Below the pieces are notes generated by a model. That model did no database searches and was not told the DNA's origin. It was given only the letters and a program-made list of their open reading frames with translations. A DNA stretch of 22,632 bases, taken from NCBI GenBank assembly GCA_001563335.1, contig LRSL01000034.1, positions 1 through 22,632 on the forward strand, given 5' to 3'. Position 1 is the stretch's first letter. The number at the start of each line of letters is the position of its first letter. A program made the position numbers and the translations under genes. Shown here piece by piece: positions 5,081-13,984 of this stretch. The DNA is from Candidatus Thorarchaeota archaeon SMTZ1-45 (lineage in GTDB: Archaea > Asgardarchaeota > Thorarchaeia > Thorarchaeales > Thorarchaeaceae).

Positions 5081-5538
5081 GCATGGTGTATGAATTACTC
5101 AGAGATGCTGTTAGACGTCATCTCGACGAAACAATGCCACTGATAGAGCAGCTCAGGGATGTCGATATTATGAGCAAACCTATCTCAGAGGGAAGGGAAA
5201 TTGGTGAAGTGGTCCTTCATCTCATACGGTCGTTAGAATACTATATGCGAGGGATAGTTGAGTCTTTTTGGGAACCTCTTCCTTACACGCTTGAAACGTA
5301 CAACACTCCGGAAGCGATTATCCAGCTCGCTGAAAATGTCTTCAAAAAAGTGAGCGAATACATGTATTTTGTACGTTTAATTAATCTTAAGGAGATATTT
5401 GACTCATTCAATAGATCAGCAACTTCGGCGGAGATTATTCTTGAGATGCTTGAACATAGTGTTCATCATAGGGGACAGATTACTGTATACTATAGACTCC
5501 TTGGCATCCCTCCAAAGTCCATATCCTACATTATCTGA
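5077..5538 (+). CDS. DinB family metalloprotein (start may be ATG 5083)
   Basis: IGEVVLHL and EHSVHHRGQITVYYRLLG His-triad pattern. Confidence 0.88.
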   Translation: MSMVYELLRDAVRRHLDETMPLIEQLRDVDIMSKPISEGREIGEVVLHLIRSLEYYMRGIVESFWEPLPYTLETYNTPEAIIQLAENVFKKVSEYMYFVRLINLKEIFDSFNRSATSAEIILEMLEHSVHHRGQITVYYRLLGIPPKSISYII

Positions 5539-5570
5539 GCGAAATAGATTTGCAAGATGTTTTCTCACAC

Positions 5571-5888
5571 CTAGGATGGTATGTCTTTGAGGACCTTCTC
5601 TATGGCATTACGATACTTCATGAATGCTTCACGACCTTTTAATGTCAATTTCAGAATGGTATGGGGTTTCTTGCCCAAGAACTCCTTCTGAACCTCAATA
5701 TATTCTGCTTCCTCAAGTTTACTCATGTGCGAAGAGAGATTCCCCCAAGTGAGTCCAAGCTGATTCATGAGAAAAATGAAATCAGCTGACTCCACAACAT
5801 ATAGTTGTGCCATTATTCTCAATCTTGAAGGCTCGTGAATAACCCTGTCAATCTCTGGTCCTGATTCAGGATCATTGCTATTGTTCAT
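5571..5888 (-). CDS. Winged-helix transcriptional regulator (ArsR/MarR-like)
   Basis: IDRVIHEPSRLRIM, LTWGNLSSHMSKLEEAEYIEVQK, LTLKGREAF. Confidence 0.9.
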   Translation of the reverse strand: MNNSNDPESGPEIDRVIHEPSRLRIMAQLYVVESADFIFLMNQLGLTWGNLSSHMSKLEEAEYIEVQKEFLGKKPHTILKLTLKGREAFMKYRNAIEKVLKDIPS

Positions 5889-6504
5889 TGCCCATTTCCT
5901 CCAAATCGAGGATTGGATACTTTCTTACGAAACGAGCCAGACTTGCTATGCCTACTAGGATGAAAAGACCACCAACGATAACCAGGTATACAGTCATTCG
6001 GGATACAGCAGTAGGGGACTCAAGGAGTGTGAAAACCATGCCAAGGATCGAAGAAACAATCCCAATTCCATAGTATCGATTAAGGCCTGATTTTGATACC
6101 AAGTACGCTGATGGTTGAATCAGACCAATCCCAACCAAGACTGGTGCCCCTCGAGCTATAAGATAGAGAATGTCGTTCTCATACACTGTCGAAAAAAAGA
6201 CTGATGCTAATGCTGGAATCATGATTAAAACAGCCAAAATCCATCCATATCCCGAGGGTGTTTCAGCCTCACCACGTAGTTTCACTTTGCCAATTCGAGG
6301 ATAGGTGAACTTCTCCTTTATCTTTTCATTAAACACAGCCTGAAATATGATAAGGATGGCTACAGTACCTACAAAAGCAGTGTGTATCAGTAAGAGAGAT
6401 ATAGCCAGTATCATGAGACCCATCCATAACTCAGTGAAGCCGTCTTGATTTGCAGTTCTGAATGTTGCTTGCTCCAGTTTTACTAAGTCAATTTTTTCAT
6501 TCAT
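5878..6504 (-). CDS. Multi-pass membrane protein, coupled to the HTH regulator
   Basis: About 6 hydrophobic segments, TYPRIG motif, 11-bp overlap with the regulator. Confidence 0.8.
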   Translation of the reverse strand: MNEKIDLVKLEQATFRTANQDGFTELWMGLMILAISLLLIHTAFVGTVAILIIFQAVFNEKIKEKFTYPRIGKVKLRGEAETPSGYGWILAVLIMIPALASVFFSTVYENDILYLIARGAPVLVGIGLIQPSAYLVSKSGLNRYYGIGIVSSILGMVFTLLESPTAVSRMTVYLVIVGGLFILVGIASLARFVRKYPILDLEEMGNEQ

Positions 6505-7205: not shown

Positions 7206-8933
7206 TCAAGACATGAAATCCATTGCTCTTGTTACCCAGTCAGGGAGATCCATGTCGAGCGATTTTGAAACATCTTGAATCGAATTCAGAGATTGAGCAG
7301 CCTTAATCCTAGTAGCACGTTTACTACCCACGCCAGGAATAACTCTCCATTGAGAGAGAGATGTTTGTGAGGGCTTGAATGGGAATGGAAGAACTGAGAC
7401 AGATCTTGGACCATGATCCACAATGAAGACATCTTGAGGCACAAAGTCATCCATCCCTCTTGGCATGACACATAACAATGGGTAGGTCCCCAATTGTCGA
7501 AGGAGATAGTTGTTACCAGCTTTGCCATCAATGAATACAGACTGGATTACAGTACCAAGAGGCGCAACCCGTTTTATCATAGCAATGTCAATGGTGTCAC
7601 GAATCTCTTCTCGATGTTTGAAGAGTTGATTTTTCTTGATCCTCGTTCCAACATCATGCTCCAGACGAGTACCTGGAAGACCAATTACTTGGCGAATGTT
7701 GATTCTTCGAACCATTAAATTCTCAGCAAGAAGTTGCTTCAAAAATTTCATGTTGTAGTCTAGAGTCTTTTTTGACTCACCAGGTAATCCATAGAGCAGA
7801 TTGATACCAGGCAGGAGATGTGGAAGTCCCCATGGCTCGCGATTGCTTCCGACAGCATTCAATATTCGAACAGCATCGATGACTTCATCCGAATCTGCTT
7901 TCAGGTTGTTCCTACGAATCACCTCAGGGTCTGTGGATTCAACACCAAATGCAGCTACATCCCCAGGGGTGTGATATTTCATGATAGATTTAGCTACTTC
8001 CCTCGATTCTTGAGGGTGATGCGAGATTGTACCAGGGTTAACATTGTCAATATGAAGCACATCTAGGTCAGGAGCACCTGTTCGAATCTTTGAAAAGAGG
8101 TTCTCAATTGCATCTGGATTTGGAGTTGGAAATTCAACCACGCCCATCTCTAAGGATCCAAATGTGAAAAGGTCTGCTTGGTGACCAATTCGAAAAGCTC
8201 TGAGTCCCAGTTCATACAATGTTTGAATCTCTTTGGCTATTGAAGTGGGAGTTCTTTCTTGAGGTGGTCCATAAGATGGTTCAACACAGAATGTACATCC
8301 ACCAGTCAGAAACCGAGGACACCCGCGATATGATTCAATTTCACAAATGATGTGGCCAATATGGAAACCAGGATGTTGTTGGACAATAGAAACTCCTTTC
8401 TTAATGAAACCCTCGATTTGATCCGCATTCTCACGGGTCAGAGATAGATTGACTGAGTCGAGGTCCTCCTTAGATTCGAGAGCCTCAGCTATGACCAGTT
8501 CTGGATCACCAGTAACAATGTAGTCAATAGGTGGTCTGAGTGCCTCTGAGCTTAAAGCAAGTTTTCCGCCCTCAAGACCACAACCAAACCTAGCCCATGG
8601 TCCTACGAGCATCTTAGGTATGTCTTCAAGTTCAGATGCTGAAAGAAGCTCTCTAGCCTCTCTGACCGAGATTGGAGTACCTCCCACATATTTACCAGGA
8701 ACAATCATTCCTGCGATGAGAATGATGAGATCTGTCTTTGACCAGAGGTGCTGTGCTTTTTGGAAGCTATCGCGGACTTGGTCAATTGTATGATAAAGAA
8801 TCTCAGTCCTTGGGGCTTTTGTCCAGATCGCACCAGCAATATAACGTGGGTAGATGCTGACATAGGGTGGAACACCAAGACATGTAGGCTCATCGACATA
8901 TCCATCGACCAGCGCAATACGTTCCACCTGCAT
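7206..8933 (-). CDS. Radical SAM protein with C-terminal helix-hairpin-helix
   Basis: VDGYVDEPTCLGVPPY N-terminus, CPRFLTGGCTFC (CX7CX2C), IPGVGSKRA HhH. Confidence 0.88.
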   Translation of the reverse strand: MQVERIALVDGYVDEPTCLGVPPYVSIYPRYIAGAIWTKAPRTEILYHTIDQVRDSFQKAQHLWSKTDLIILIAGMIVPGKYVGGTPISVREARELLSASELEDIPKMLVGPWARFGCGLEGGKLALSSEALRPPIDYIVTGDPELVIAEALESKEDLDSVNLSLTRENADQIEGFIKKGVSIVQQHPGFHIGHIICEIESYRGCPRFLTGGCTFCVEPSYGPPQERTPTSIAKEIQTLYELGLRAFRIGHQADLFTFGSLEMGVVEFPTPNPDAIENLFSKIRTGAPDLDVLHIDNVNPGTISHHPQESREVAKSIMKYHTPGDVAAFGVESTDPEVIRRNNLKADSDEVIDAVRILNAVGSNREPWGLPHLLPGINLLYGLPGESKKTLDYNMKFLKQLLAENLMVRRINIRQVIGLPGTRLEHDVGTRIKKNQLFKHREEIRDTIDIAMIKRVAPLGTVIQSVFIDGKAGNNYLLRQLGTYPLLCVMPRGMDDFVPQDVFIVDHGPRSVSVLPFPFKPSQTSLSQWRVIPGVGSKRATRIKAAQSLNSIQDVSKSLDMDLPDWVTRAMDFMS

Positions 8934-8952: not shown

Positions 8953-9948
8953 TTAGTTCCATTCCTTGAAGCTATCATATCCTGCAAAAGGAATTGGCAC
9001 TGATCCCTCTTTAGATGCCCAGGTAACTTGGTTCCCCTTTGTAACATATCCAATTCTTACCAAGTTGACCTTTTTCTTTCTGGCAACATCAAGTGCATCA
9101 TCGTACTTCTCAGGAGGTATTGAAAGAACGAGGAGAAACTCTTCTCCACCCTGCATCACCATCTTCATGGTTGAAAGCTTCTTGTTTCGACAAAAGAACT
9201 CGATTTCAGAAGTGATAGGTAGATTCTCAATGATTATTCCGCATTTACTGAGCTTCGCAATTGTATGTAGTGTAATTCCTAAACCGTCACTGCTGTCCAT
9301 AGAGGCAGTCACAGCTTCAATATCTTTGAGTGCGGCTACAAAGTCTATGTCGATTTCTGGTCTAAATGCGGCTGCAAGAGCATCTTTGTGTAACTCAGGT
9401 TTGGCTTTTTGTCTTTTAATCAAGATTTCAAAGGCTACTGAGGTCAGACCGAAGTGTCCTGTGACTGCGATGACATCACCCTCTTTTGCACCATTTCGTG
9501 GTACGATATCCTCTGGCGCCGCTGTACCAAGTGCGACACCCGTGAGAACTACATCATCACACATTCCCACATCACCTCCAAGGTAGGGAATGCTAGATTT
9601 GAGCCCGTATTGTGAAAACCCTCGAACTAGTTCATTTGCATCCTCGACTTCATAATCTTCAGGGACACAAAGGGAGAGCATCGTGGCTATTGGTTTTACA
9701 CCTTTAGCAGCTAGATCACTAAGTGCCATCACTGCAGTCTTACGTCCAACTTGAGCTGGCGTCATCTCTGGAAGCCAATCAGTCTTCCTTACAAACGTAT
9801 CTACATTGATGACAAGATTAGTCTTATCGGAGATTGGAATGTCTGAGGCATCATCATCAAATCCTAGTTTTGCACCTCGAGGTATATTGACAAGACTGCT
9901 AATCTTAGCCAGAAAATTGCGTTCACCCATCTCACCGGTCCTCAACAT
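8953..9948 (-). CDS. thiL: Thiamine-monophosphate kinase
   Basis: DDDA, SDLAAKG, GGD, MDSSDGL, GGEEF motifs. Confidence 0.92.
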   Translation of the reverse strand: MLRTGEMGERNFLAKISSLVNIPRGAKLGFDDDASDIPISDKTNLVINVDTFVRKTDWLPEMTPAQVGRKTAVMALSDLAAKGVKPIATMLSLCVPEDYEVEDANELVRGFSQYGLKSSIPYLGGDVGMCDDVVLTGVALGTAAPEDIVPRNGAKEGDVIAVTGHFGLTSVAFEILIKRQKAKPELHKDALAAAFRPEIDIDFVAALKDIEAVTASMDSSDGLGITLHTIAKLSKCGIIIENLPITSEIEFFCRNKKLSTMKMVMQGGEEFLLVLSIPPEKYDDALDVARKKKVNLVRIGYVTKGNQVTWASKEGSVPIPFAGYDSFKEWN

Positions 9949-10025
9949 AAGACCTCCACTGTTCTAGCGTGCTGGTTCCATGATAAAGTTTTATTAGAGA
10001 ATTCCAAAGGTGAGCGTTGAGATGA

Positions 10026-10101
10026 GCCTCGGTGGCTTAGGGGTTATAGCGTCTGCTTCGTAAGCAGGTGATCGCGGGTTCGAATCCCGCCCGGGGCTCC
10101 A
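10026..10101 (+). tRNA. tRNA-Thr(CGU); CCA encoded
   Basis: Acceptor GCCTCGG/CCGGGGC, anticodon arm TCTGC-TTCGTAA-GCAGG, T arm GCGGG-TTCGAAT-CCCGC, discriminator U. Confidence 0.95.
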
Positions 10102-10447
10102 TTTTCCCTTCGAAGCTCCTTTTTTCATGTGCAGGTTTCCATTACTTTATACGCATTGTGATGAAGTTCCATGAGCTAGGTGAAAAAATATGAAAAATAA
10201 CACAAAAACAGACAAGCCCCAATATAGGGCTGACACAAGGCCAGGCTTTTTTGAGTGGCTGGCTGGAACTACCAGGTAATTGATGTAGTTCAACGAACTG
10301 GGAACAGATTGAATAGGTACTAAATTGTGACTCTTTCTGTTCCAATCATGACTTATCTTTTAACAAGGCATCCTCCCAATACAGAAATCCTTATCACAGG
10401 TTTGAGAACGGATGGAAATATCCCTCAAGATTAAATCTCTGTTATTT

Positions 10448-10535
10448 GCGGAGGTTGCCAAGCCAGGTCAAAGGCGCCAGGTTGAGGGCCTGGTTCAGTA
10501 GTGATTCGCGAGTTCAAATCTCGCCCTCCGCACCA
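10448..10535 (+). tRNA. tRNA-Leu(GAG); CCA encoded
   Basis: Acceptor GCGGAGG/CCTCCGC, anticodon arm CCAGG-TTGAGGG-CCTGG, long variable arm, T arm GCGAG-TTCAAAT-CTCGC. Confidence 0.96.
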
Positions 10536-10553
10536 TTCTCATTCTAGTTCAAA

Positions 10554-11030
10554 TTACTTCAGAGTCTTTTCGAACCAGATATTGTACCCCCACGGATTTT
10601 TCTTCTTCTTGAAAATTGAATACCCATGCTTCTTGTAGAAGTTCACAGCCCATTCCGCTTCACTGTCCGTTTCCAAGTGAATCTTAGTGAAGTGGAGGTT
10701 TTTCGCCTTCATTTCAAGGAAGCTCATTAAGGAAGAACCAATTCCTTTCCTTTGATGTTTTGAATGAACATGCATCAGTGGAATCCATGCTGTGTCTTCA
10801 TCTCTGGTTCCTAAAGAACCAACGGCAATGATTTTGTCCTTCCTTCTGTGGATAAAGAACTCCATGATAGTTGCCATCTCATCGAGCTGTTTTCGAGTTA
10901 GAAAGGGCTCTCGATAGTACTCTTTCGGGATAATCTTGCTGAACCATTCGCGATTAATTGTATTGATGAGTTTGAGAATCTCTTCCAAATCAGAATCTTC
11001 AGCGCTTTCAAACTTGATCGATATTTTCAA
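10554..11030 (-). CDS. GNAT family N-acetyltransferase (cassette 1)
   Basis: VHSKHQRKGIGSSLM motif A, AVNFYKKHGY motif B; TTG start and GGAGG SD lie inside repeat copy 1. Confidence 0.92.
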   Translation of the reverse strand: MKISIKFESAEDSDLEEILKLINTINREWFSKIIPKEYYREPFLTRKQLDEMATIMEFFIHRRKDKIIAVGSLGTRDEDTAWIPLMHVHSKHQRKGIGSSLMSFLEMKAKNLHFTKIHLETDSEAEWAVNFYKKHGYSIFKKKKNPWGYNIWFEKTLK

Positions 11031-11065
11031 ATCTCGCCCTCCGTACCATTCTCATTCTAGTTCAA
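11026..11065 (+). repeat. tRNA-Leu 3'-end direct repeat, copy 1 (att-like)
   Basis: 39/40 identical to 10513-10552 (TTCAAATCTCGCCCTCCGYACCATTCTCATTCTAGTTCAA). Confidence 0.95.
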
Positions 11066-11510
11066 TTCGTTCCATCTTGAATTTGCGCATTCGCTCATCA
11101 ATTCTTGAGTCAAAAGGAGCCAGAAATCTCTGGGCACATGTAAATAGATCATCAGGGACTTCTAATGCAATCTCAATGCATTGGGTAATATCCTCCTCTG
11201 AGAGATATTGAGTCAAGGGACAATGGACCAGATAATGTTCTTCTCCATTTGTTGAGAAAATAGGATATTTCCTACAAAGTATTGGACGTACTGGATAGAT
11301 CTCGCAGGCGGATTCTTTGAGATAGGGACAAACCAGGTCCTCTCCAAAATCTGTAATATAGCAGTTCTCCGAGATTTCAATGAACTTATTCGGATATCCA
11401 GCCTCAATGATTCGATTTACTTCCAACTTTGTTGCAAGAGAACCTCCTTGTTTGCAGCAGTATCCACCACATTCTTTGCAAATGTTCGAATAGTTGTGGA
11501 CTGTCATCAA
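11052..11510 (-). CDS. YkgJ-like cysteine-cluster (Zn/Fe-chelating) protein (cassette 2)
   Basis: CKECGGYCC, CPYL...CEIYPVRPILCRKYP signature. Confidence 0.88.
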   Translation of the reverse strand: MMTVHNYSNICKECGGYCCKQGGSLATKLEVNRIIEAGYPNKFIEISENCYITDFGEDLVCPYLKESACEIYPVRPILCRKYPIFSTNGEEHYLVHCPLTQYLSEEDITQCIEIALEVPDDLFTCAQRFLAPFDSRIDERMRKFKMERIELE

Positions 11511-11536
11511 ATAATCACAAACGTTTTACTCCCATA

Positions 11537-11558
11537 TCAAATCTCGCCCTTCGGACCA
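11537..11558 (+). repeat. tRNA-Leu 3'-end direct repeat, copy 2
   Basis: TCAAATCTCGCCCTTCGGACCA, 20/22 identical to 10514-10535. Confidence 0.88.
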
Positions 11559-11645
11559 TTATCCTTTCTCTTCTATTCACCTATCAGGGTTCTAGCAGCA
11601 AAGCAATACTAGCATAGATAATGGTGCTAAACATTGCATAATCAG

Positions 11646-12461
11646 TCAATCTTTGAAATAAACCATCTGAATACTGGACGCCAGTAGATCCCCTTCATCA
11701 CTCCATAGCTCAGCAACCTGATCAAAATAACCACGGTGGAAACGTTGGCCCCGAGCAAAAGCCAAAATCGGGCGATTTGCCTGACGCTCAAGGCTAGAGT
11801 AATCAGCATGAAAATGAGTTGTGATGGATACTGTACTTGCCACTCCTAGTTGCTGGCGCCGAATAAAGACACGAGGGAAAAAAACGTCGCTTATTGCCGC
11901 TAGAGAGAGAAAATCAAGCATCCGTTCCGGCGTGTCACGCACCCAGAGTAAACTCTCTGAGTCTTTCGCTAGCTGGTCTGAGAGAGTCAATTCACCACGT
12001 ATGAATTTGAAGTCGTAGCGGTGAATCCATTGAGGCACAGGTGGAGCCGGCCACGACTCAATTTCTTCAGGTCTCGGTGCATCAGGAGCACGTGCCTCAG
12101 ACATCATCCATGTTTCTTGCCGGATTGCAAGAACCGCAGTGGCTGTTGCAGCTACTTGTGAGCCTTGAGTGAGCTCAGCAATCCAATGTTGGTTCGAACG
12201 GTTTGTACGCATAAGACGAACTGCTAGGTCATATGGAGCATCCGCGATTGGACCAGCAAAGTTCACGGTTAGTGAGATAGGATTTCCCTGACGTTCTTTG
12301 TGACTCAGTATGCCATTCAGAATGACTGCTACAATGATACCACCGAATGGGCCCACCATATTAGCATAGGACTCAGGAATATGCCCTTGGTATGTATAAG
12401 GTGATGTTGGTACAAGTTCGACTGCTTGATTGAAAGGGTGTATTTGACTATTATCGGGCAT
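11646..12461 (-). CDS. Acyl-CoA thioesterase family, double hotdog fold (cassette 3)
   Basis: NMVGPFGG, LAAISDVFFPR, STVSITTHFH, GYFDQVAELWS motifs. Confidence 0.88.
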   Translation of the reverse strand: MPDNSQIHPFNQAVELVPTSPYTYQGHIPESYANMVGPFGGIIVAVILNGILSHKERQGNPISLTVNFAGPIADAPYDLAVRLMRTNRSNQHWIAELTQGSQVAATATAVLAIRQETWMMSEARAPDAPRPEEIESWPAPPVPQWIHRYDFKFIRGELTLSDQLAKDSESLLWVRDTPERMLDFLSLAAISDVFFPRVFIRRQQLGVASTVSITTHFHADYSSLERQANRPILAFARGQRFHRGYFDQVAELWSDEGDLLASSIQMVYFKD

Positions 12462-12564
12462 GGTCCTCTCCGTATCTAATCTATTCGGGTTTCTTATGGA
12501 TGTAATTATAACGCTGATTTAAATGGTCATGCCATAAGATGGACGCGGCAACAACTTGAGAGGC

Positions 12565-12586
12565 TCAAATCTCTCCCTCCCTACCA
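12565..12586 (+). repeat. tRNA-Leu 3'-end direct repeat, copy 3
   Basis: TCAAATCTCTCCCTCCCTACCA, 19/22 identical to 10514-10535. Confidence 0.75.
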
Positions 12587-12651
12587 TCTATTCCTTGTTT
12601 CATCTTGGTCTGCTAATTTATATTTATTAAAAGGAGATAGGGATTGTAACA

Positions 12652-12921
12652 GGACCCACCCAAGATGCGACGAGGCAATTCGCAGTCCTTGAACGGGTGG
12701 GTCCGAGGGAGGGAGTTGTCTTCTGAAGCATAATGGGACTTAGCGCGGCATAGTGATCCAAGATGTGAACTCTCTTTTTGGCTAGTCCCTGAAGGTGTTG
12801 TGAGTCTTGGATTCATACATCAATCCGCGGATTTCAATATAAGGTCGTCATAAGACTAATCGTCGATTTTTCATCCTGAAGATGCAAAAATTCCTGCAAT
12901 TTCAACACAATCTAGGGACTA
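12652..12921 (+). ncRNA. Candidate structured ncRNA of unknown family
   Basis: Three consecutive long stems (12652-12704, 12706-12779, 12783-12921); TTTATTAA at 12623-12630; no credible ORF. Confidence 0.6.
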
Positions 12922-12982
12922 TGGCAATGTATAAAGGTCATGAAGAACGGGAGAGGTCTGAAGCCCTTAAGAGTGGTTAATA

Positions 12983-13984
12983 ATGTCATCTCGAAGAATA
13001 GTAATCATTGGAACTGGGAATATGGGCAGAATACATGCTCGCATTCTTGGTGATCTGGGGGTTCTAGTGGGAGTGGCTGATAAAGATAAGGCCACAGTAG
13101 AACAGGTTGCTAAGGAACATGGCACTACAGCATTTACTGACTTTGAGAGGATGCTTAAAGAAACTGAGCCTGAGGGAGTTATTATTGCCACACCTACTTC
13201 AACTCATGCCAGCATCGCCCAAACCATTGCAACGAACTATAATGGCATCAAGGGAATCTTGATTGAAAAACCTCTGGCAAGTACACTGGAGGATGGAAAG
13301 AAGGTTGCAGAAATAATAAAGAAGCGTAACATTGTCACACTGGTTTCCCACTCTGAGATTTATAATCCAATAGTAAGTAGAGCATTGTTTCTCATTGAAA
13401 CTGATGCGATCGGAACGCCCCAAACAATAATTCATGATAGAAGGGGATTTGTTGCTCCTGCAAGGATTCCATCTCTGGGAGATGTCTTTGAAGACATAGG
13501 TGTCCATGATTTTGATATCATGGCAAGAATCAGCAATGGTCCAGCAAAGCTATATGCGCAAAGTAACACTGTGGGTGGGATTCACAATAGTGGAACTATC
13601 ATGGTGAAGTTTCATTCAGGAACTGAACACTTTTTCCACCTCTCTCGGCAATATGCAGGACGTCGCCGCTACATGGATGTATCAGGCACAATGGGAGTAT
13701 TAGTTCTTGACTTATTTGGCCAAATAATCAAAGTACAGCACCTAGACCAAGCTCCTGAAACGAGAGGCGATACAATACAGCTCCCGGAGAGAGGTGCTAC
13801 GATAAAGGTCTATGGTGAGCCAGTTCGGGAAGCTCTCAATGACTTTCTGAGATGTATCAAGACAGGGGCAACACCAAGAGTAAGCATTGATGATGCTCTA
13901 TGTGCCTTAGAGATTGTTGAGGCTGCAAGAAAAAGTGCAGAGTCAGGAAAAGTGGTTGATATTGAAGTCAGGTCTAGGAAATGA
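12983..13984 (+). CDS. Gfo/Idh/MocA family oxidoreductase
   Basis: IIGTGNMG Rossmann motif, IATPTSTH, IEKPLA, DIGVHDFD. Confidence 0.92.
   Translation: MSSRRIVIIGTGNMGRIHARILGDLGVLVGVADKDKATVEQVAKEHGTTAFTDFERMLKETEPEGVIIATPTSTHASIAQTIATNYNGIKGILIEKPLASTLEDGKKVAEIIKKRNIVTLVSHSEIYNPIVSRALFLIETDAIGTPQTIIHDRRGFVAPARIPSLGDVFEDIGVHDFDIMARISNGPAKLYAQSNTVGGIHNSGTIMVKFHSGTEHFFHLSRQYAGRRRYMDVSGTMGVLVLDLFGQIIKVQHLDQAPETRGDTIQLPERGATIKVYGEPVREALNDFLRCIKTGATPRVSIDDALCALEIVEAARKSAESGKVVDIEVRSRK

Follow-up and report, generated by a model that had tools for sequence, protein, structure and literature searches.

A 17-nucleotide extension shared by a tRNA-Leu gene and a YkgJ-like cassette in a Thorarchaeota gene array

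The stretch analysed here, 22,632 nucleotides (nt) of contig LRSL01000034.1 from Candidatus Thorarchaeota archaeon SMTZ1-45 (the window), carries a row of small genes behind a tRNA-Leu(GAG) gene. The row is divided by displaced copies of the tRNA-Leu 3' end, which we call remnants; a unit between two such copies is a cassette. We find that the repeat formed by the tRNA end and remnant 2 runs 17 nt past the encoded CCA and that these 17 nt belong with the end of a YkgJ-like gene, the copy beside the tRNA being the derived one. We see about an even chance that it arose by a one-off, non-allelic patch transfer from the remnant-2/YkgJ junction to the junction of the tRNA with the neighbouring GNAT cassette. 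The genome of the window (G000) is a Thorarchaeota-type metagenome-assembled genome (MAG) of 3.54 Mb in 119 contigs, 87.7% complete and with 5.8% contamination. It was compared within a set of 28 genomes of its genus, G000 and 27 others; labels of the form Gnnn denote genomes and Lnnn loci. The features that carry the argument are:

10448..10535, plus strand: tRNA-Leu(GAG), head of the array, CCA encoded at 10533-10535 (ARAGORN; Rfam 50.7 bits)
10513..10552, plus strand: copy 1 of the 40-nt repeat, from T-loop to CCA (23 nt) plus the 17-nt extension
10536..10552, plus strand: the 17-nt extension, non-coding here, in the slot of the GNAT spacer
10554..11030, minus strand: GNAT acetyltransferase, 158 amino acids (aa), TTG start inside remnant 2 (Pfam PF00583, E 9e-17)
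11026..11065, plus strand: copy 2 of the 40-nt repeat, made up of remnant 2 (22/23, GTACCA) and, natively, the first bases of the YkgJ cassette
11052..11510, minus strand: CxxCxxCC (YkgJ-like) gene, ends MERIELE*, stop TGA at 11052-11054 (Pfam PF03692, E 1e-7; 14 related loci)
11059..11065, plus strand: AGTTCAA within the YkgJ coding end, right edge of the duplicated block, identical to the T-loop at 10511-10517

The first-pass annotation had noted a 39/40 match of 10513-10552 with 11026-11065, and both direct reading and a repeat search agree. The sole difference is C10531 against T11044 (GCACCA versus GTACCA). Twenty-three nucleotides of the repeat are the tRNA 3' end, which recurs at 11026-11048 with this one mismatch, no remnant being expected in shuffled sequence; the other 17 lie past CCA. 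This 17-mer, TTCTCATTCTAGTTCAA, occurs exactly twice in the window (10536-10552 and 11049-11065), where 0.02 matches are expected at up to 2 mismatches and 0/100 shuffles reach two, and exactly twice in the whole genome. Copy 2 of the 17-mer opens with a 3-nt spacer; its remainder (11052-11065) holds the stop TGA and the final codons of the YkgJ-like gene, just as the annotation had read it. Copy 1 is non-coding and stops one base short of the GNAT stop. The 40-nt unit is bounded by TTCAA at both ends. On the tRNA side, AGTTCAAAT stands at 10511-10519, in the T-loop, and again at 10546-10554, running into the GNAT stop TAA at 10554-10556; these positions, too, were read correctly. The T arm of tRNA-Leu(GAG) reads GCGAG-TTCAAAT-CTCGC, and its loop word TTCAAAT is TTCGAAT in both other tRNA-Leu genes of the genome. 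AGTTCAA is found six times on the plus strand of the window, three of them at this locus.

The GNAT-remnant-YkgJ junction is covered without a difference by Logan contigs from four runs of four studies, one of which (X1) is possibly the source of the assembly; record 8 of X1 spans 10507-12700 and record 11 of X2 spans 10540-10694. Exact stretches common to both 40-nt copies measure 18 and 21 nt, shorter than the 31-letter words of Logan. With independent contigs from four runs showing no difference at the junctions, the structure is real and no assembly artefact. Rare variants are dropped from Logan contigs, in which minority forms are thus invisible.

Relatives of the YkgJ-like gene were collected at 14 loci; the named records are MAGs of Candidatus Thorarchaeota or Promethearchaeota. 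Twelve have a complete C-terminus, and all 12 end in I-x-L-x* (IELE* in 8/12), which answers the question of whether homologues elsewhere end alike and marks the 14 coding bases as native to the YkgJ-like gene. Of the remaining two loci, one lacks a stop and reads into an antisense tRNA, and one is cut by a contig end. A tRNA joined directly to a YkgJ end, as the annotation had predicted, does exist: it is seen in 4/20 distinct contexts (L039, L045, L046 and L115). In 13/20 a remnant and another cassette precede the gene, and in 3/20 the 45 nt next to the stop hold no remnant; a cupin gene adjoins YkgJ on the stop side in G002 and G018. At L046 (JBHLND010000089.1), the stop of the YkgJ orthologue, which abuts a real tRNA-Leu, is lost through a change from TGA to AGA, and the open reading frame (ORF) continues for 11 codons through the antisense 3' end of the tRNA. 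That tRNA-Leu was not called by ARAGORN and has an apparent insertion past the anticodon arm.

The tRNA-side copy has no counterpart. Among 234 tRNA-Leu ends and remnants, the 17-mer is found at the two G000 copies only, and the next best sites not followed by YkgJ reach 14/17 and 13/17. Its 14 coding bases occur exactly four times in the 28 genus genomes: at the YkgJ coding ends of G000, G008 and G018, and behind the G000 tRNA. The annotation had held that the extension would be simply part of the attachment site (attB) if it followed tRNA-Leu also where YkgJ is absent; no such case was found among the 234 sites. With a 17-mer unique to the G000 pair and an exact 14-mer otherwise confined to YkgJ ends, the 17 nt are not attB and the tRNA-side copy is derived. 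The spacer from CCA to the YkgJ stop varies among species (ttc, tccttt, ctcttt, acttt, cttcttc, ccatcgttt and others). When 228 sites were compared all against all, the G000 pair gave the longest exact block past CCA common to unrelated cassettes (17 nt). The next longest, of 14 nt, are those of the G000 copy with two YkgJ orthologues, of L108 with L128 and of L113 with L180.

The GNAT spacer tells what the extension replaced. In the closest GNAT cassette, L161, the coding part is 92.1% identical to that of G000 (258/280 nt) and the preceding remnant is a 23/23 match. Both spacers are 18 nt long, TATTCCTCTCTCTTCGAA in L161 and TTCTCATTCTAGTTCAAA in G000, and match at 9/18 positions where about 1.4 differences are expected; the probability of at least 9 differences in 18 at 7.9% divergence is 3e-6. 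Both end in TTCRAA followed by the TTA stop. A spacer divergent at equal length beside a gene 92% identical argues that the GNAT spacer of G000 was overwritten by the first 17 nt of its right-hand neighbour. Replacement at unchanged length, in turn, fits copying-over better than an insertion that duplicates its target. Other GNAT orthologues, present in 14 of the 27 other genus genomes, have other spacers again, of 2 to 28 nt, none with the 17-mer. Compared with L161, the G000 gene has 30 extra bases at window positions 10600-10640 (the lysine-rich KKKKNPWGYN region), an uncertain indel as L161 has two masked bases there.

The array itself is a genus-wide structure. Rows of a 22-nt core, TCAAATCTCGCCCTCCGCACCA, stand behind tRNA-Leu genes in the MAGs of relatives and in the 27 other genus genomes, and metagenome contigs, too, have this core in at least 136 stretches. 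Across 111 remnants, the left edge is sharp at TCAAATC and tRNA identity ends at CCA; 57/111 have a perfect core, a share biased upward because most loci were retrieved with one. We delimited 90 distinct units between two same-strand cores, with a median of 579 nt, of which the longest ORF covers 87% (median); 60 of these ORFs run on the minus strand, the other 30 on the plus. The array invariably lies between the tRNA and the same oxidoreductase and MiaB-like genes, and holds partly the same genes in different orders. GNAT is followed by YkgJ in G000 and the distant G023, YkgJ precedes GNAT in G002, G018, G009 and G021, and L041 and L042 have thioesterase and YkgJ swapped relative to G000. 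Such shuffling among relatives shows that the cassettes are mobile. A Pfam scan of 46 array proteins from 7 loci returned solely metabolic, binding and defence-type domains, with no recombinase, primase or polymerase among them. T at core position 18 adjoins GNAT in G000, G009, G021 and G005. Pairs of sites with homologous flank on the left only or the right only share core variants at about the background rate of 23% (tRNA-Thr ends set aside by eye). About 9 bases past CCA are roughly 90% pyrimidine at real tRNA-Leu genes and remnants alike, often CTTCTTCTT; the tract could be the tRNA terminator or part of a recombination site.

Two claims of the annotation are not supported in this light. 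It saw the 40-nt duplication as the way in which cassettes are added, and in every other unrelated pair the block in common past CCA is 14 nt at most. It also took GNAT for a newcomer. Cassette proteins of G002, G013, G018 and G023 are 61-81% identical to those of G000, and flanking core proteins 56-84%: GNAT, YkgJ and thioesterase diverge in step with core genes and differ in order, so they are old residents that were shuffled and not fresh imports. Its preference for target-site duplication or a TTCAA crossover core over a fixed attachment site (attP) stands in part, as TTCAA does lie at both ends of the unit, while the 111 remnants speak for a fixed core reaching to CCA. A fixed core, identity ending at CCA and varied spacers make the usual turnover look like fixed-site recombination and not target-site duplication.

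We searched for an enzyme or a mobile partner. PF00589, PF00239, PF01548 and PF01797 (tyrosine recombinase, serine recombinase, IS110-type and IS200/IS605-type) have no match in G000, nor was a Xer-like gene found in this 87.7% complete genome; for transposases the negative covers PF01548 and PF01797, DDE families not having been searched. PF00589 is matched in 8/28 genus genomes, and none of the 12 integrase loci of the genus has a remnant. Its matches are most numerous in G020, G015 and G024, which are rich in perfect core copies. A tblastn search with the ORFs of these loci against all array loci and G000 returned unrelated neighbour genes only and no integrase homologue. No autonomous element with the same attachment-site (att) core was met, either in viral contigs, where the 22-nt core has 0 matches, or beside genus integrases; on the viral-contig result, a virus or plasmid carrying the core was rejected. 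Priming of reverse transcription by tRNA, with the gene-strand remnant resembling a primer-binding site beside a purine tract, was set aside because cassette ORFs are in mixed orientation (60 versus 30). Hairpins of the integron attC kind were rejected as well, since the remnant sites do not fold: single-strand folds of three of them, one on both strands, gave z-scores of 0.2, -0.4, 0.45 and 0.0, no better than shuffles. Read from the sequence, the ends of the GNAT body (473 bp, 10553-11025) hold no inverted repeat.

In the patch transfer that we favour, remnant 2 with the YkgJ end would have been the donor and the tRNA end with the GNAT spacer the recipient, 513 bp apart. The event would be local and non-reciprocal: gene conversion, templated break repair, or a double exchange between misaligned copies, at the remnant and at TTCRA. 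The 23-nt identity would serve as left anchor and the T-loop-like TTCRA word just before the gene in both spacers as right anchor, and the GNAT spacer would be overwritten with its length kept. Cassettes would normally move in another way, through an enzyme that G000 does not encode and that recombines them at the fixed core derived from the tRNA, with no duplication past CCA. In a conservative reciprocal exchange, the tRNA is simply joined to what stood right of the crossover in the incoming partner, and no new 17-nt duplication can result; the 17 nt must have been present in both partners beforehand, unless DNA was copied. A patch transfer accounts for the unchanged length, both edges, the uniqueness and the lack of a recombinase gene.

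Several observations weigh against it. The ancestral or variant junction CCGYACCATTCTCATTCTAGTTCAA has 0 matches in metagenome contigs (exact-junction scan), and a spacer of the L161 type was not found behind the tRNA of the same strain, the contigs of the four runs showing the present form only. The one comparator is L161, which gives 463 nt from a contig of 1574 nt and has two bases masked. With only some 5 nt in the right anchor, a conversion tract ending there is unusual. T11044 of remnant 2 was not copied into the tRNA (C10531): the tract may have begun right of that base, the base may have changed later, or it may have been selected against in a tRNA. A recombinase that used a secondary site resembling the T-loop would leave TTCAA edges just as well, and about 3 AGTTCAA words per window strand are background. 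Finally, remnant 2 (22/23) is far better kept than remnants 3 and 4, which would also fit a recent GNAT insertion.

Such an insertion is the chief competing account, and we hold it unlikely. YkgJ would have abutted the tRNA, and GNAT would have been inserted by an enzyme cutting at two TTCAA words 35 nt apart, fill-in leaving a 40-nt target-site duplication; in a variant, the GNAT circle already held the 40 nt after imprecise excision at the TTCAA of the YkgJ end, used as a secondary core. The unit does start and end in TTCAA, AGTTCAA is common to T-loop and YkgJ end, 111/111 remnants begin at the T-loop, YkgJ abuts the tRNA in the four contexts named above, and remnant decay grows with distance from the tRNA (1, 3 and 3 mismatches). 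TTCAA is moreover enriched about 2.5 to 4 times in the 20 nt past CCA (40 against about 11 expected), partly through YkgJ orthologues. Yet at no other of the 228 sites is a neighbour-derived duplication longer than 14 nt, the inserted body must have lost exactly its 18-nt spacer, the families searched give no recombinase or transposase in G000, and the GNAT body is without terminal inverted repeats. We know of no enzyme with a 35-40 nt stagger, which counts against the idea too. Neither a GNAT-less allele nor a circle junction appears as a joint in the contigs of the four runs, which drop rare variants. It is improbable, next, that the 17 nt are the stump of a lost duplicate, in which a YkgJ + GNAT unit was duplicated or re-integrated at the tRNA via remnants, and the proximal YkgJ, its remnant and the GNAT spacer were then deleted between short repeats. 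The YkgJ-then-GNAT order of G002, G018, G009 and G021 shows that such a unit exists, cassette order differs among species through repeated rearrangement, and short TTCRA words stand at both presumed breakpoints; three events are needed, though, with a deletion ending one base from the GNAT stop and restoring exactly the 18-nt spacer length.

One may also suppose that nothing was copied and that a cassette subfamily has an extended fixed attachment site of about 40 nt, inside which YkgJ merely ends. TTCTAGTTC does recur at +5 to +7 past CCA in 3 further cassettes without YkgJ (L022, the GNAT of G005 and the cupin of G023), against 0.11 expected; TCATTCTTTTTCAA is common to the L108 cupin cassette and to L128 at this offset, in a block likewise ending at TTCAA; and the reverse complement of the 14-mer (10539-10552, 11052-11065), TTGAACTAGAATGA, has stop codons in all three frames. 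Still, only about a tenth of sites have anything similar, the closest GNAT cassette (L161) is without the motif, and the 3-nt spacer TTC varies among YkgJ orthologues but is identical in both G000 copies. Identity of 17/17 beside a family resemblance of 12-14/17 calls for a recent copy, and we regard the extended site as slightly less credible than the lost duplicate. Chance resemblance, or mis-assembly across short repeats, would be conceivable in a contaminated MAG of 119 contigs, but we consider it very improbable given 0/100 shuffles with two 17-mers, contigs of four runs with 0 differences and shared exact stretches shorter than the 31-letter words. A broader idea, to which we give as little credence as to the lost duplicate, is a hitherto undescribed Asgard cassette-recombination system with a bipartite site: the T-loop core TTCAAAT, the tRNA tail, a pyrimidine tract and, some 35 nt further along, a second core, TTCRA. 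On this idea, an enzyme outside the families searched would have exchanged or cut strands at the two cores, with a stagger of 35-40 nt or a replicative resolution step, and the G000 duplication would be its direct footprint.

How does the locus compare with known systems? Integrons, including integrase-less cassette arrays, are rows of cassettes, and archaeal integrons exist. The array shares with them mostly single-gene cassettes, a repeated recombination site in between and an order that varies among relatives; unlike theirs, its site is a tRNA tail without hairpin potential (no attC fold), there is no IntI beside the tRNA, and gene orientation is mixed (60 to 30). Cis-mobilisable elements, or accretion arrays, are att-flanked units without a recombinase, stacked at one site and presumably moved in trans. 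Here, too, recombinase-less att-flanked units sit at one site, but no related autonomous element was found in viral contigs or beside genus integrases. A transposon insertion would leave a duplication of characteristic length each time, whereas the 228 sites hold one pair of 17 nt and otherwise at most 14 nt. Ectopic gene conversion, or templated break repair between dispersed repeats, is a general mechanism and resembles the length-neutral replacement of one junction by a nearby, similar one. What differs here is that the proposed event would have had very little homology on its flanks, 23 nt on one side and about 5 nt on the other.

Archaeal elements of the pNOB8/SSV type are integrative elements in tRNA genes. 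Like such elements and genomic islands, our array has an intact tRNA followed by displaced direct copies of its 3' end at unit borders, and a tandem build-up at one tRNA. Its units differ in being single genes of about 0.5 kb, with no integrase gene inside or beside them, and in being old residents shuffled in place. Genomic islands at tRNA genes of the tyrosine-integrase type are catalogued in the Islander database (PMC4383910). Tycheposons of Prochlorococcus are described as having a tyrosine recombinase, often a replication module, and kilobases of cargo (bioRxiv 10.1101/2020.12.28.424599). The islands they shape are tRNA-adjacent with partial tRNAs scattered within and newer arrivals pushing older ones inward, much as here, while our arrays have no recombinase or replication module found in or beside them. 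Full-text literature searches, within the text they could reach, returned no published description of these arrays. The locus resembles tRNA accretion and the integron layout but departs from both in defining features, with no integrase, no attC hairpin, half-kilobase units and resident cassettes that change places.

Asgard archaea are the closest known relatives of eukaryotes, and gene shuffling in them is, to our knowledge, poorly known. A chromosomal locus behaves here like an integron, with a tRNA tail as cassette border and no visible recombinase. The 17-nt extension is probably a small, accidental scar. As the sole place where the usual exchange left one, it would reveal that junctions also interact by copying, and it suggests TTCAA, the word in the T-loop with which every remnant starts, as a preferred breakpoint. 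Should an enzyme be found, archaea would have a new site-specific cassette system; should there be none, the arrays would show how far short-homology repair alone can reorder genes.

The remaining features of the locus are:

10026..10101, plus strand: tRNA-Thr(CGT), upstream anchor of the locus (ARAGORN; Rfam RF00005, 64.8 bits)
11536..11558, plus strand: remnant 3 of the tRNA end, an older, decayed copy with 3 mismatches in 23
11646..12461, minus strand: acyl-CoA thioesterase, 271 aa (Pfam PF20789 and PF13622), with orthologues in other arrays
12565..12586, plus strand: remnant 4, likewise older and decayed (3 mismatches in 22), which closes the array on the distal side
12613..12816, no strand assigned: conserved flank past the last remnant, which also follows the arrays of relatives; no Pfam family

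Rfam, applied to 9800-13000 at E up to 0.1, matched tRNA-Thr and tRNA-Leu alone. Upstream of the tRNAs lie AIR-synthase-related and radical SAM genes. The 346-nt spacer between tRNA-Thr and tRNA-Leu (10102-10447) has no Pfam or Rfam match in G000 and is about 80% conserved in G005 and G010. In 4/4 runs, contigs link the two tRNAs with 23 other letters replacing 344 bases (joint 10102 to 10447); these joints probably derive from related organisms. ORFs of 67 aa at 10142-10345 and 12613-12816 have low-complexity translations without a Pfam family. The conservation of both looks like conservation at the DNA level, and the flank 12613-12816 is probably non-coding.

The real start of the YkgJ-like gene is likely the ATG at 11505-11507. 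On the gene strand, remnant 2 (11026-11048, minus) reads TGGTACGGAGGGCGAGATTTGAA, with GGAGG seven bases ahead of the GNAT TTG. That TTG aligns with the ATG of the G004 and G002 orthologues (MTxSI... versus MKISI...), which have about 40 nt of their own upstream sequence where G000 has the remnant. Judging from this arrangement, the GNAT gene of G000 may need the remnant to be translated and read-through from YkgJ to be transcribed.

Words akin to the 14-mer (TTCTAGTTC, TCATTCTTTTTCAA) stand at the same offset past CCA in unrelated cassettes (L022, L057, L216, L108 and L128), coding in some and non-coding in others; they may form a boundary module that some of the cassettes have. The cupin gene makes up a separate cassette in G023 and L108, where its spacer of 27-29 nt resembles the YkgJ end. 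Cupin and YkgJ lie side by side with no remnant between them, as a two-gene cassette, at L213 (G002, 7239-8047) and L215 (G018, 5092-5900), coordinates being given in tRNA sense, for which L215 was reversed. A second kind of array is seen at L211 (G015:C124:1-9136), behind another tRNA-Leu-like end. Its remnants are longer and keep the T-stem, its units measure 1.4-3 kb, and its cargo is of the defence type: an AAA_21/OLD-like TOPRIM ATPase, an AbiV-like HEPN protein and a TPR protein.

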